Positions 29,905-35,668 of a stretch of DNA of 64,000 bases are shown piece by piece (the first letter of the stretch is position 1; each line of letters opens with the position of its first letter). A program made the position numbers and the translations under genes. The stretch is from Chloroflexota bacterium (GTDB taxonomy: Bacteria; Chloroflexota; Dormibacteria; CF-121). Location of the stretch: NCBI GenBank assembly GCA_034666565.1, contig JAXDLN010000036.1, positions 32,079 through 96,078 of the forward strand, written 5' to 3'. The notes beneath the pieces are model-generated. The model made no database searches and was not told the origin of the DNA. It was given only the letters and a program-made list of their open reading frames with translations.

Positions 29905-30573
29905 TCACGGCACCGCCTCGGGCCCCTGATCGACGTGGTTCTCGTAGAACTGGGTGATCGCGTTCTGGTCGTACGCGTCCAGGAACTCGATGTATTTCCA
30001 GGCGACCAGGGCCACTTTCTTCTGCATCCCATGGCTGTACGGGGTCATGATGATCTTGGGCTCGCCGTAAGTCGGCTCCAGTGGCGCCAGCTTCTGGACG
30101 TAGTTGGTCAACGAGTTCTTCAAACTGGTGCAGTCGCTGCCGCTGGGGCAGTTGTAGAGGACCACGATCCCGCCGTGCTCCAGGTTGTGGACGAACTGAC
30201 CCTCGACCAGCGTATCGACCGTTCCCCAGTTGACCGGGGCGCTGCCCGACACCGAGTAGTGCGGTCCGTTGGTGGGCGGGTAGGACTTGTAGGTCCATTG
30301 CGTCGATGGGTCGATGTGGGAGGGCGTTCCCTCGTCGGTGCCCGGCGTACCAAGCGTTGGACCACTGTAAGTTTGAAAGGCCAACCGGCCAGCATTCGAC
30401 ACAGTCGCCGCGTGGTTGAGGGCAACCGCGACCACCAGGATGGCGACCGCGGCCGCCCCGATGACGCCGGCGATGATGAACAGGTTCCGACGGTCGCGCG
30501 CGCGCTGGCGGGCGGCGGCTTCTTCACGCTGCTGCTGGCGAAGCGCCTTCAGTTCGCGCTGGGTTCTCGACAC
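29905..30573 (-). CDS. membrane-anchored protein, DUF3105-like (HNLEHG motif); function unknown
   Basis: Basic N-terminus, then one TM helix (LFIIAGVIGAAAVAILVVAVAL), then an extracytoplasmic domain containing QFVHNLEHGGIVVLYNCPSGSDC. The family assignment is tentative. Confidence 0.5.
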   Translation of the reverse strand: MSRTQRELKALRQQQREEAAARQRARDRRNLFIIAGVIGAAAVAILVVAVALNHAATVSNAGRLAFQTYSGPTLGTPGTDEGTPSHIDPSTQWTYKSYPPTNGPHYSVSGSAPVNWGTVDTLVEGQFVHNLEHGGIVVLYNCPSGSDCTSLKNSLTNYVQKLAPLEPTYGEPKIIMTPYSHGMQKKVALVAWKYIEFLDAYDQNAITQFYENHVDQGPEAVP

Positions 30574-30623
30574 TGATTCCTATTCTCCCAAACGGGCGGT
30601 AAGACCGAACTCATAAACGGCCG

Positions 30624-32541: not shown

Positions 32542-34277
32542 CGGGCCAGTTGGATCATCCGCAGCACGAGGGCGGGGGCGATGCCGCAGCCGATCGACAG
32601 CGCTGGGCCCACCCAGTACAACGCGGACCGCGGTCGCAGGGAGGCGGGCGAGGCGGCGTGGCGATCGACGAGGGGCGCCAGCTGCAGCGCCGCGAGCAAC
32701 GCGGCCGCAAGCAAGCCGAGCGCCAACCCTGCCTGGAGCGTGGCGATCACGGTGATGGTGGCGGCAGCGAACGTGATCGACCCTGGCCAGTTGGAACGCG
32801 CCAGCACCACGAGCCTGGACCAGCGAGAGGACGGCGAGGGGATGTCATCGATGCGAACAATGGCCGCGTCGATCAGGAGCACCACCGCCGCCAGCGCGCC
32901 GAGACCGAGGGCGTCGCGCGCACTGATCGCCAGCAGCAGGAGCGCCGCGATCAATGCATCGCGAAGGACCTCGCGCCCGCTGCTGTCCGCCAGCAACCAG
33001 GTCAGCGCGGTGCGCGCGACCAGCAGCAGCGCGCCGACCGCGGCGACCCACTGGAAGCGGACGAGTCCGGCGGCGTTGACCGAACTGAGCGCCAGCATGA
33101 CAACCAGCGCGGTGGTTGGCAGCACGAGCACGCGCAGTGTTGCCGCTCGGGCGGCAAATAGCATCAGCACCAGGCCGGCGGCGAGCGCAACCACCTGCAC
33201 GCGAGTACTCCATGAGGGCGCAGCCAGCGGCGGCAGCACGGAGGTCATCGCCAGCGCACCGGCCGCCAACCAGGCCGGACGTTCGCCGCGCCGGTCGAGG
33301 GTGCTGGCGACGGCGATCAGCCCGGCGAGCGCCGCCCATCGAACGGCTGGCGCGGCGGCGGCGACCGTCAGCACGCCGAGCGCCGCCGCCCACTCGATGC
33401 CGATTGGTGTCGCGGCCGCTCCCGCCACCAGGAGGATGGCGGCACCGAGCAGGATCAGGCTGCTGACGTTCAGCCCGATGTCGGAGAGGACCAGCACCAC
33501 ATTCACGGAGGCGAGCGCCGCGAGCAGCGCCGCCGCCGCCGCGAGGAGGAGCAGCAGCGCACTCAACGCCGGCCGAAACCGGCCGGGCAGACGCAAGTGC
33601 TCACCCGCGACCGGCATCAGCGCCATCGCCCCGGCGAGCGCGGCGGTCAGCGGCCCGGCAGGGACCGCGGCCAGGAGGATCGCCGCAGTGGCGCCGACCA
33701 TCAGCGCCTGGCCTTGCAGCCGCTCGGGTTCGTCGATCGGGCTGATGAACCAGGCGGCGCCCAGGGCAGCCAGCGCCCAGGGCACGGCGCTGAGCAGGAC
33801 GGGGTTCTCGCCCACCGGCAGACGCGACGCCAGGAAGATCGCCGCGAGCAACGCGCCGACGATGGTGACCACGCGCCGGGTTAGCCCCTCGAAGCTCGAG
33901 CGGGCGCGCGCGCCGTGGCGCGGGAGGAGCAGGGTCGCGACGATGGGGCCGATGGCCCAGGCGGTCAGACTCGGGTCGACCAGCAGCGCGAGCGACCAGG
34001 CCGCCGCCAGCACGGCGCCGATGGTCGCCGCCTGTCGTTGCCGGCCAACCGTGCCATAGGCCGCCAGCAGGCTGACCACGAATAAGGCCGCCGGTAGGTA
34101 GAGGATCACGGGCGGACCGCGACCGCGCCCACGACGGCGGCGAACGCGCCCCAGAGCACGACCTGACTCCACGCCGGCAATTTGGGGAGCACCGGCCGTG
34201 CCGGCAGAAGGGATAGAAACCGAGGACCGGCTCCGGTGCCCCGCACGCGCAACGGGAACCGCCCCTGCAGACGCCAC
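32538..34277 (-). CDS. polytopic membrane protein, Ala/Leu-rich, function unknown
   Basis: 579-aa ORF, hydrophobic along its whole length, with high GC3 on this strand. The first ~57 codons overlap the upstream gene, so the real start is probably internal. No motif recognised. Confidence 0.45.
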   Translation of the reverse strand: MASAGAVPVARAGHRSRSSVSIPSAGTAGAPQIAGVESGRALGRVRRRRGRGRGPPVILYLPAALFVVSLLAAYGTVGRQRQAATIGAVLAAAWSLALLVDPSLTAWAIGPIVATLLLPRHGARARSSFEGLTRRVVTIVGALLAAIFLASRLPVGENPVLLSAVPWALAALGAAWFISPIDEPERLQGQALMVGATAAILLAAVPAGPLTAALAGAMALMPVAGEHLRLPGRFRPALSALLLLLAAAAALLAALASVNVVLVLSDIGLNVSSLILLGAAILLVAGAAATPIGIEWAAALGVLTVAAAAPAVRWAALAGLIAVASTLDRRGERPAWLAAGALAMTSVLPPLAAPSWSTRVQVVALAAGLVLMLFAARAATLRVLVLPTTALVVMLALSSVNAAGLVRFQWVAAVGALLLVARTALTWLLADSSGREVLRDALIAALLLLAISARDALGLGALAAVVLLIDAAIVRIDDIPSPSSRWSRLVVLARSNWPGSITFAAATITVIATLQAGLALGLLAAALLAALQLAPLVDRHAASPASLRPRSALYWVGPALSIGCGIAPALVLRMIQLAR

Positions 34278-35668
34278 CCGGTCAGCCCAAGCACGATGCC
34301 GACCACCACCGACACCGCGAGCGCGGGCCAGACGCCAAAACCGGTGACGAGTCCGAAGGGGCTGGCTGCGATCATCCCCCGGGGCACCAGGCGGACGGTC
34401 GCGGCAGCGGGAACGACCAGTGTGCCGATGGCGATGATGGGAAAGGCGGCGATCAGCAGGAGCACCCCTGCCCAGGCGGTCGCGACGTCAAGCTGGCGGA
34501 GGCGCCGCAGGGTCACATGACGTAAGGCCGCGATCAGAGAAACGACTACGACCAGCCCGACCGGAATCATCGCGAAAAGCAGCCCGCGTGCGTTCAATGC
34601 CAGGCCGGCGAGCCACAGACCGACGAAGGCGACGCTCCCGGGAACCATGGCGAGGCCCAACAGGGTGAGGGCGTCAGGTGGCGAGCTATCGCGGGGGCGA
34701 ACCCCGGCCAGGCCGGCGAGTGGCACCAGCAGCAACCAGAGCCAGGTGCTGGCCACCGTCAACAACGGTTGATCCCCGGTCGAGAGCGAGATCGCGAGCC
34801 CGGCTTGCGCTGCCAACAACAGCCCCGCCAGTCGCGGTCCGGCCCGCGTAAAGAGCGCGAAGCCCGCGAAGACCAGCGCGCCAATGACGCCCACGGCGAA
34901 CAAGGCGACCGCGGTCGCGCGGTCGGGGAGCCGGCCGCCCATAAGCGCGAGTAAGCGCAACAGCAGATAACCGGCGGGGGCCAGCCAGGCGATGGCGGGC
35001 TCGAACGCCACCGCCGCCTTCGGCCCTCCCCAGATGTGGATGAGGGCGCCGATCCGGACCACGACCGCCGTAAGGACGAGCACAAACGTCGCCAGCCCGA
35101 AGGTGTCGGAGGGCACGCCGGAGAAGGCGCTCGTGCCCACCGATTGGATCGCGCTGGCTGCCGCCAGCAGAAGGCCGATGTCGGCGACCTGGACCGTAAG
35201 TCGCAGGCCCCGCCGGCGCGGCGACGCTTCGTCGAGCGCGCCGCTCCATGCCAACGTCAGCAGCTGGAGCGCGATGTAGACCAGCAGCAGGTTGTCGGCG
35301 AGGATCACGGCACAGGTTGCCGCGCTCGTGAGCAACCACCCTGCCCACGGGTCCCGCCGATCGCCGCGCACCCGCTGCCTGGCGAGCATCAGCAGGGCGG
35401 CGGTGATCAGCGCGATGGTGGCGAAGGCGAGCGAGAGCCCATCGAGACGGATGCTGAGATCGGCATAGGGAAACGTCGTCAGGTAGGGGACGTCGACGTG
35501 TTCGCCGGGAGAGAGGCGCAGCAGCTCGACCAGCGCGATGACCGCGGCGAGTCCGGTGGCACCGGCCGCGATCCACCCGTTGCCCTGGTCTCTGGGTCGC
35601 TGTCGCACGATCGCCGCGGCACCCAGCAGGGCGATGAACGGGAGCAACGCCTGCAGCGCGAGCGGCAT
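34106..35668 (-). CDS. polytopic membrane protein (>=12 TM), function unknown
   Basis: 520 aa, hydrophobic throughout, with strong GC3 bias. I first thought it resembled NuoN/MnhD but could not find the WxPDAxxGxP motif, so it is left unassigned. Confidence 0.5.
   Translation of the reverse strand: MPLALQALLPFIALLGAAAIVRQRPRDQGNGWIAAGATGLAAVIALVELLRLSPGEHVDVPYLTTFPYADLSIRLDGLSLAFATIALITAALLMLARQRVRGDRRDPWAGWLLTSAATCAVILADNLLLVYIALQLLTLAWSGALDEASPRRRGLRLTVQVADIGLLLAAASAIQSVGTSAFSGVPSDTFGLATFVLVLTAVVVRIGALIHIWGGPKAAVAFEPAIAWLAPAGYLLLRLLALMGGRLPDRATAVALFAVGVIGALVFAGFALFTRAGPRLAGLLLAAQAGLAISLSTGDQPLLTVASTWLWLLLVPLAGLAGVRPRDSSPPDALTLLGLAMVPGSVAFVGLWLAGLALNARGLLFAMIPVGLVVVVSLIAALRHVTLRRLRQLDVATAWAGVLLLIAAFPIIAIGTLVVPAAATVRLVPRGMIAASPFGLVTGFGVWPALAVSVVVGIVLGLTGWRLQGRFPLRVRGTGAGPRFLSLLPARPVLPKLPAWSQVVLWGAFAAVVGAVAVRP

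Follow-up and report, generated by a model that had tools for sequence, protein, structure and literature searches.

Proton translocation by complex I, Mrp antiporters and membrane-bound hydrogenases is carried out by their antiporter-like subunits. To our knowledge, the relay of Lys and Glu residues in these subunits is almost universally kept. In the pairs MrpA-MrpD and NuoL-NuoM, two adjacent coupled genes encode polytopic products of ~520 amino acids (aa), the first of which is of the NuoL/MrpA type. Here, we describe a locus with a comparable layout in a stretch of 64,000 nucleotides (nt) from a Chloroflexota bacterium (GTDB lineage Bacteria; Chloroflexota; Dormibacteria; CF-121), positions 32,079 to 96,078 of contig JAXDLN010000036.1 in assembly GCA_034666565.1, which we refer to as the window. 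Two adjacent genes, A and B, encode large membrane proteins and are followed by genes for Maf, a lipoprotein with DUF11 repeats and a DUF3105 protein. In our best explanation, to which we assign a probability of about 0.6, these genes lie within a string of housekeeping genes, A and B form a unit in which A is a degenerate antiporter-like protein, and the other three genes are neighbours. The new element is this degenerate antiporter-like protein, conserved phylum-wide and tightly coupled to an orphan partner; Maf, the lipoprotein, DUF3105 and the synteny with rplU-obg are ordinary. The source contig measures 866 kb, stems from a JGI metagenome and belongs to Candidatus Dormibacterota. Proteins of the window carry the NCBI locus tags QOH92_949/950, and their relatives come from metagenome-assembled genomes of Candidatus Dormiibacterota or from older 'Chloroflexi' bins.

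Protein A and the antiporter-like subunits

An initial annotation of the window had found no recognisable family for the two membrane proteins, which stands for B and fails for A, a remote antiporter-like homolog. Among 15 members of the A family, four gave weak matches to the NCBIfam MrpA-like model PRK12646 (best E-value 2.6e-6) and five to the NuoM model PRK08668 (best E-value 5.5e-5). A broadened family alignment, with members down to 53% identical, was compared by hhalign with an antiporter template built from seven E. coli paralogs (NuoL/M/N, HyfB/D/F and HycC). This comparison gave one collinear alignment of ~340 columns (A 3–353/361 versus NuoL 4–401/402, E-value 1.3e-5), and a second run gave a score of 62.2 (E-value 4.3e-7; 343 columns, A 3–353 versus NuoL 4–401). 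As controls, reversed alignments scored 13–15 and 30 shuffles of 25-column blocks scored 16–24. Protein B stayed at the level of the shuffles with the same template, which indicates that being a membrane protein rich in Ala and Leu does not suffice for a high score with this template. When an AlphaFold2 (AF2) model of A, built from a 22-sequence family alignment (predicted local distance difference test, pLDDT, of 40.8), was searched with Foldseek, 22 of the 25 top PDB matches were antiporter-like chains (NuoN/L, ND4/5, NdhD/F and MrpD; best E-value 3.3e-4, TM-score 0.33–0.38). The poor quality of the AF2 models of both A and B results from the available homologs being at least 61–66% identical. 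Taken together, the homology of A to NuoL/MrpA-type antiporter-like subunits is very likely, and we regard it as established at that level of confidence.

From transmembrane helix (TM) 1 to TM12, A is collinear with NuoL. The class to which A comes closest comprises the complex-I and Mrp subunits NuoL/ND5, MrpA, NdhF and HyfB (Pfam Proton_antipo_N and Proton_antipo_M). Motifs of NuoL/MrpA found in A include the N-terminal LDGLSL, ADNLLL(V/M)Y before TM5, VAD/VGD of TM6, the GT..F loop and 'P..xF.G' of TM12. Its length and helix count (~16 TM, with short loops throughout) are similar to those of NuoL and MrpA, and so are two further C-terminal helices beyond a linker. Four helices follow TM12 in A, the last two of them parted by a variable Arg-rich linker of 30–65 aa, which is placed where NuoL and MrpA have the lateral helix; unlike NuoL, A has no long amphipathic lateral helix at this point.

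The proton relay of A differs strongly from that of NuoL, in which the roles of the residues are established for complex I. According to the hhalign residue map, NuoL D82 is kept in A as D76 (within LDGLSL) and NuoL D178 as D163. The TM5 Glu (NuoL E144) is replaced by Gln135 and the TM7 Lys (NuoL K229) by Arg205, the TM11 Lys (NuoL K342) is aligned to a Leu-rich stretch, and the TM12 Lys/Glu position (NuoL K399) is occupied by Leu351. Both Q135 and R205 are invariant across the A family. Read from its sequence, A is best described as a predicted antiporter-like protein of the NuoL/MrpA type in which the proton relay is degenerate. It is set apart from the NuoL/MrpA class by these replacements and by falling below all Pfam thresholds, and from antiporter-like subunits in general by its gene context: partner genes of the Nuo, Mrp, hydrogenase or DabA type do not stand alongside, and A is coupled to an orphan alone. 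Neither the window nor any of 42 related loci contains nuo or mrp genes, and the neighbours of A are a zinc-ribbon protein, B and maf.

Protein B, an orphan with a revised start

The initial annotation gave B a length of 579 aa, from an open reading frame (ORF) reaching to 34277 that overlaps A by 172 nt (34106–34277). This ORF is merely the longest open frame, and the gene is 523 aa long from a GTG at 34109, so that the true A/B overlap is 4 nt. Database gene calls of 523 aa, the N-termini of homologs, which align from the same GTG, and a frame change from A to B at ~34100–34250 in a plot of GC content at third codon positions (GC3) all support this start. The protein is Ala/Leu-rich and polytopic with short loops, and its sequence in the window has no Lys. 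When the B profile was run exhaustively with HMMER against 1.84 billion representative proteins, only 59 clusters (50% identity) were returned, of which ~9 were full length. The homologs number 207 and extend down to 28% identity with conserved length, ends and motifs. A broad alignment (members down to 28% identical) contains invariant Trp, Gly, Pro and Phe residues as well as R303 and S505; no acidic residue is invariant in it, either within the membrane or elsewhere.

No Pfam model matched B in 14 family members, no relevant match was found when the B profile was searched against all PDB sequences with HMMER, and Foldseek returned nothing for the AF2 model of B (22-sequence family alignment, pLDDT 42.1). 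Alignments of B with A and with the antiporter set by hhalign, including greedy and global modes, reached E-values of 0.15–0.9 and were no better than shuffles. As a separate candidate explanation, A and B as paralogs were rejected on the basis of BLASTP and hhalign. Against the antiporter set and against A alike, the best local alignment of B falls on the TM12 'PPxxxF-G' motif (B 431–470 versus NuoL 382–418 and versus A 332–401), and the likeness of 'LARSNWPPxxxFAG' to 'PPxxGFxSK' (E-value 0.15–0.23) is a hint only. On the evidence of these searches, B represents an orphan family confined to Dormibacterota. That it is a second antiporter-like subunit diverged beyond recognition is possible, and we rate it as rather doubtful.

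Long ORFs arise by chance in high-GC DNA, the strand opposite B carries an ORF of 492 aa, and codons 1–56 of the 579-aa ORF are indeed non-coding, all of which would suit a view of this ORF as an antisense or high-GC artefact and not a gene. This view has a negligible probability and is refuted for the 523-aa gene by the 207 conserved homologs, by a GC3 of 0.85 in the B frame with a frame change exactly at the stop of A, by an AT skew of the kind typical of membrane-protein coding strands and by the conserved 4-nt overlap with A. The 492-aa plus-strand ORF (32581–34059), in turn, was rejected as a high-GC shadow ORF: the plus strand opposite B has an AT skew of 0.3–0.48, i.e. a T-rich minus strand, as expected where the minus strand encodes a membrane protein.

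Coupling of A and B and their proposed role

The 4-nt overlap of A and B was found in ~33 of 37 related loci (GTGA in the window, ATGA in L033), and the other gene junctions vary. Such a start/stop overlap implies translational coupling, and its conservation suggests that A and B are one unit, probably a heteromer; A-B is the only tightly coupled unit within the gene string. Through the overlap, A and B would be made in equal amounts and would assemble side by side in the cytoplasmic membrane, like MrpA with MrpD or NuoL with NuoM. As a speculation, the TM15-linker-TM16 segment at the C-terminus of A may reach across B. From the missing Lys/Glu chain in A, we infer that the pair has most likely lost canonical proton-coupled antiport. 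Its role would probably be that of a transporter or channel that has been rewired, or else a structural one within the membrane. Unlike MrpA-MrpD and NuoL-NuoM, the second protein has no significant similarity to MrpD, NuoM/N or the first, and the small Mrp subunits are absent.

A phylum-wide family of full-length A proteins with Gln, Arg and Leu at relay positions, paired with an orphan and lacking redox or Mrp subunits, would represent a natural 'dead-relay' variant. Such a family could show other uses of the antiporter fold, or how much of the relay is dispensable, and these comparisons provide a first structural context for two conserved membrane proteins of the uncultured soil phylum Dormibacterota.

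One database entry (P0241, 709 aa) joins the N-terminal part of an A homolog to a B homolog through out-of-frame sequence, and its end reads 'ARSEEHTSELQSPDQ'. It was rejected as a natural A-B fusion and is an assembly or frameshift chimera.

Gene layout and synteny

The five minus-strand genes at 29905–35668 are real, co-directional and tightly packed (Table 1). Each frame is supported by GC content per codon position (GC3 0.77–0.86) and by a sliding frame plot, and all five products have many homologs. Apart from the start of B, the coordinates in the initial annotation are right. Its ~50-nt overlap at 31906–31958, between maf and the DUF11 gene, is present and measures 53 nt; the ATGA that it placed at 32538–32541 reads TTGA, since maf begins with TTG. 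The string continues directly into rplU-rpmA-obg, as had been described. In a scan for operon limits, sigma-70-like promoters were not found, terminator-like sites were fewer than in shuffles, and Rfam returned no ribosomal leader RNA at the locus, results that are uninformative in a genome of ~68% GC.

Table 1 Features of the locus, with positions in the window.
Feature	Position	Strand	Description
lon	38958-41396	-	Upstream of valS in the gene string
valS	36224-38827	-	Between lon and the zinc-ribbon gene
Zinc-ribbon gene (zr156)	35713-36183	-	156 aa, two TM and double zinc ribbon, adjoins A upstream
Gene A	34106-35668	-	520 aa, ~16 TM, predicted divergent NuoL/MrpA-type antiporter-like protein
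A/B start/stop overlap	34106-34109	-	GTGA, 4 nt
Gene B	32538-34109	-	523 aa, GTG start at 34109, Ala/Leu-rich polytopic orphan
maf	31906-32541	-	211 aa, TTG start, TTGA overlap with the stop of B
DUF11 lipoprotein	30624-31958	-	444 aa, lipobox and three CLIPPER/DUF11 repeats
CLIPPER/DUF11 repeats	~31449-31862, 31035-31448, 30627-31034	-	Ig-like repeats of the lipoprotein
DUF3105 protein	29905-30573	-	222 aa, one TM, extracytoplasmic domain
rplU (L21)	29444-29869	-	141 aa, 35 nt downstream of the DUF3105 gene; then rpmA, obg, nadD, rsfS

Synteny was compared in 34 GTDB species representatives and eight more distant metagenome contigs. The order lon-valS-(zinc-ribbon gene)-A-B-maf-DUF11-DUF3105-rplU-rpmA-obg-nadD is identical in the 34 species-level genomes. 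The eight contigs, which belong to a more distant clade and were recovered by a metagenome scan with an alignment of five B sequences, have the same lon-to-nadD order, and none of them shows a rearrangement that separates the genes. Identities to the window in this clade are ~70% for valS, ~71% for obg, ~44% for A and 28–31% for B. Median identities to the window proteins are 98% for rpmA, 95% for the zinc-ribbon gene, 89% for lon, 85% for obg and 85% for valS, followed by DUF11 (75%), maf (71%), DUF3105 (70%), A (66%) and B (62%); no other gene of the block evolves as fast as A and B, but neither of the two is ever lost. Spacings range from −8 to +106 nt between B and maf (+356 to +497 nt in the distant clade) and from 25 to ~200 nt between the DUF11 and DUF3105 genes, and the distance from DUF3105 to rplU is constant at 35–38 nt.

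Since the flanking housekeeping genes are equally syntenic, conserved order gives no means of delimiting a pathway. In our best explanation, the region forms part of the phylum-wide housekeeping string tig-clpP-clpX-lon-valS-...-rplU-rpmA-obg-nadD-rsfS and is no dedicated envelope operon. The initial annotation had proposed a single envelope operon of five genes; their order is kept phylum-wide, and the five are not singled out by it within the lon-to-nadD block, in which only the A/B junction is kept as a 4-nt overlap. On present evidence, we conclude that maf, the lipoprotein gene and the DUF3105 gene are conserved neighbours inherited with the block rather than evident partners of A-B.

In B. 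subtilis and Streptomyces, the interval between valS and rplU holds maf-radC-mreBCD-minCD or mreBCD-pbp2-rodA. The minus-strand order tig-clpP-clpX-lon-valS-...-maf-...-rplU-rpmA-obg-nadD-rsfS at ~24000–46000 of the window resembles this arrangement around the mre/min cluster. The Dormibacterota slot between valS and rplU contains the zinc-ribbon protein, A, B, DUF4321 in some genomes, maf, the lipoprotein and DUF3105, and no mreBCD, rodA or minCD was found in this slot or elsewhere in the 64-kb window. By analogy with the slot, an envelope or division role for A-B is conceivable, a position that is not in itself evidence. A wider proposal would have A-B as a new two-subunit module derived from a complex-I/Mrp antiporter-like subunit, with the relay lost, the module fixed in the phylum and its antiporter fold repurposed for a cell-envelope or division role. 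The module shares the valS-rplU slot with maf, and in one clade with DUF4321; in Firmicutes and Actinobacteria, this slot is occupied by the Mre/Min/RodA morphogenesis genes. B would then either have a fold of its own or be a second antiporter-like subunit diverged past recognition. In this full form, we consider the proposal a long shot.

In the distant clade, an 82-aa DUF4321 gene with two TM lies between B and maf (Pfam E-value 2.7e-13; L041:9712-9960 on the plus strand, and also in L040 and L042-L044). Neither the window nor any of the 34 closer genomes has this gene. DUF4321 often lies upstream of maf-mreB in Firmicutes, and a remnant of an MRE cluster would fit this gene; a literature search on DUF4321 found nothing useful.

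Alternative explanations

Several observations weigh against a degenerate antiporter-like unit that stands apart from its neighbours. The Pfam models PF00361 and PF00662 had no match to A in 15 members even at E-values up to 10, and the A-family profile found no NuoL or Mrp chain among PDB sequences with HMMER. With low pLDDT values of 41 (A) and 42 (B) and low Foldseek TM-scores of 0.33–0.38, the superfamily fold of A (14 TM with discontinuous TM7 and TM12) and an A-B interface are conjectural. The change from Lys to Arg in TM7 could partly stem from a Lys-poor, high-GC proteome (Lys content of 0.4% in A and 0% in B). An unconventional ion path through the kept D76, D163 and R205 could still exist, and, since the whole block is syntenic, A-B could also be linked in function to zr156, maf, the lipoprotein or DUF3105. 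In a different reading, A-B would be a functional cation/proton antiporter of two subunits, equivalent to a minimal Mrp in which B is a strongly diverged MrpD-like second antiporter-like subunit, with a non-canonical relay of Arg205, Asp76, Asp163 and water. It would account for the NuoL/MrpA-like character of A with its two kept Asp residues and a basic residue at the TM7 position, for the equal size and translational coupling of A and B, for the best local alignments of B falling on the TM12 'PPxxxF-G' motif of NuoL and A, and for one NCBI record that names an A fragment 'multicomponent Na+:H+ antiporter subunit'. We nevertheless consider it unlikely, given that the matches of B (E-value 0.15–0.23) are no better than shuffles, that the Glu of TM5 and the Lys residues of TM7 and TM11/TM12 are missing from A, that B has neither any Lys nor an invariant membrane-embedded acid, and that no MrpB/C/E/F/G-like genes are nearby.

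The initial annotation suggested that the large membrane proteins may be glycosyltransferase- or polymerase-like, and from this follows the reading that the five genes form an envelope-biogenesis operon in which A and B, of the GT-C, Wzy or O-antigen-ligase type, build a surface polymer that carries or anchors the DUF11 lipoprotein. The co-directional genes with short or overlapping junctions, the three of five products that are membrane or surface proteins, and the phylum-wide gene order would be consistent with such an operon. Searches of 14 B-family and 15 A-family members, however, returned no match to GT-C, Wzy or O-antigen-ligase Pfam models at E-values up to 1–10, and these 29 members had no NCBIfam match of this kind either. 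Predicted topologies of A and B have loops under ~30 aa and no large outer loop, B has no invariant acidic motif, and A is homologous to antiporter-like subunits instead. The equal synteny of the flanking housekeeping genes marks no pathway, and the B-maf and DUF11-DUF3105 spacings vary. We consider this reading improbable and favour A-B as a degenerate antiporter-like unit within a housekeeping string.

Neighbouring genes

The zinc-ribbon protein zr156 encoded upstream of A has a Pfam DZR match (E-value 2e-9), with the double zinc ribbon on the cytoplasmic side and two TM. It is 79–99% identical (median 95%) over 40 related loci, above ValRS, Lon and Obg and matched only by L27, and its gene always lies 8–53 nt upstream of A, rarely ~190 nt.

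Maf, the triple-DUF11 lipoprotein and a single-pass DUF3105-like protein with an HNLEHG motif had been recognised in the initial annotation, and all three are confirmed by Pfam, TM prediction and motif. Contrary to its statement that no product has an assigned function, Maf is identified by its sequence as an ordinary YhdE-like pyrophosphatase for modified nucleotides. Maf matches Pfam PF02545 with 187 bits (cut-off 27) and TIGR00172 with 169.7 bits (cut-off 117.15), and has an E-value of 3.5e-33 to E. coli YhdE (PDB 4p0e). The match to YhdE and to B. subtilis Maf (PDB 1ex2) is full length and includes the common S-x-S-x-R-R and ADT motifs, seen here as ASTSARR (residues 6–12) and AADT (residues 66–69). 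The window protein differs in a 27-aa C-terminal tail that overlaps the next gene. In Firmicutes, maf belongs to the ancestral MRE/MIN cluster (PMC8136486); the window maf is not beside mreBCD/minCD.

The lipoprotein matches PF01345 with 85.8 bits (cut-off 24.6) in three stretches, and a repeat alignment gave three units of ~137 aa, compared with ~120 aa in the initial annotation, at 30% pairwise identity. DUF11 has been renamed CLIPPER, a CnaA-like immunoglobulin (Ig) domain of surface proteins, often with a Lys-Asn isopeptide bond (PMC12617251). With its signal peptide carrying the lipobox LTAC (residues 22–25) and its domains of surface-protein type, the protein is very probably a cell-surface component, as had been proposed. 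Inspected by eye for an isopeptide Lys...Asp...Asn triad, only repeat 1 has a first-strand Lys together with Asp/Glu and Asn candidates, and repeats 2 and 3 are without this Lys. The CLIPPER stalk domains of fibrillar adhesins (PDB 9IFR; PMC12617251) are likewise tandem PF01345 repeats, three in the present case, behind a signal peptide. Unlike these adhesins, the window lipoprotein is short, lipid-anchored and has no adhesive tip or sorting domain.

The DUF3105 protein (PF11303, 68.7 bits versus a cut-off of 25) has an Arg/Lys-rich N-terminus, its TM at residues 33–52 and the HNLEHG motif at 129–134 in the domain outside the cytoplasm. Related plasmid-borne paralogs were examined on a Deinococcus plasmid (L050), Nocardia pNF1 (L051) and a Halorussus plasmid (L052). 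The core common to these and to Dormibacterota orthologs comprises Y95, P99-P100, G103, H105, W116, H129, E132, H133, G134-G135, D199 and D202, so that the pattern Y-x3-PP-x2-G-x-H ... H-x-L-E-H-G-G ... D-x2-D is shared between the window protein and the paralogs of Deinococcus, Nocardia and haloarchaea. The plasmid contexts comprise a heavy-metal P-type ATPase, a CopC-CtaG-like-DUF3105-DUF305-M23-CcdA-TlpA series and merA/merB/ArsR. These paralogs thus belong to copper or mercury resistance islands, whereas the window copy is a conserved chromosomal gene directly upstream of rplU. The conserved core with its HxxEH-like motif and the metal-resistance contexts of the paralogs suggest a putative extracytoplasmic metal site. 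A literature search on DUF3105 found nothing useful.

Other observations in the window

A second Lon protease (795 aa), additional to the one in the housekeeping string, is encoded directly downstream of an FtsH gene at 10899–15241 on the minus strand. At 17315–22148 on the plus strand, a squalene-hopene-cyclase-like gene, a terpene synthase gene and a gene for an 807-aa GGDEF-HD protein stand in a row beside a polyprenyl synthase gene, and these may be a small terpenoid cluster.

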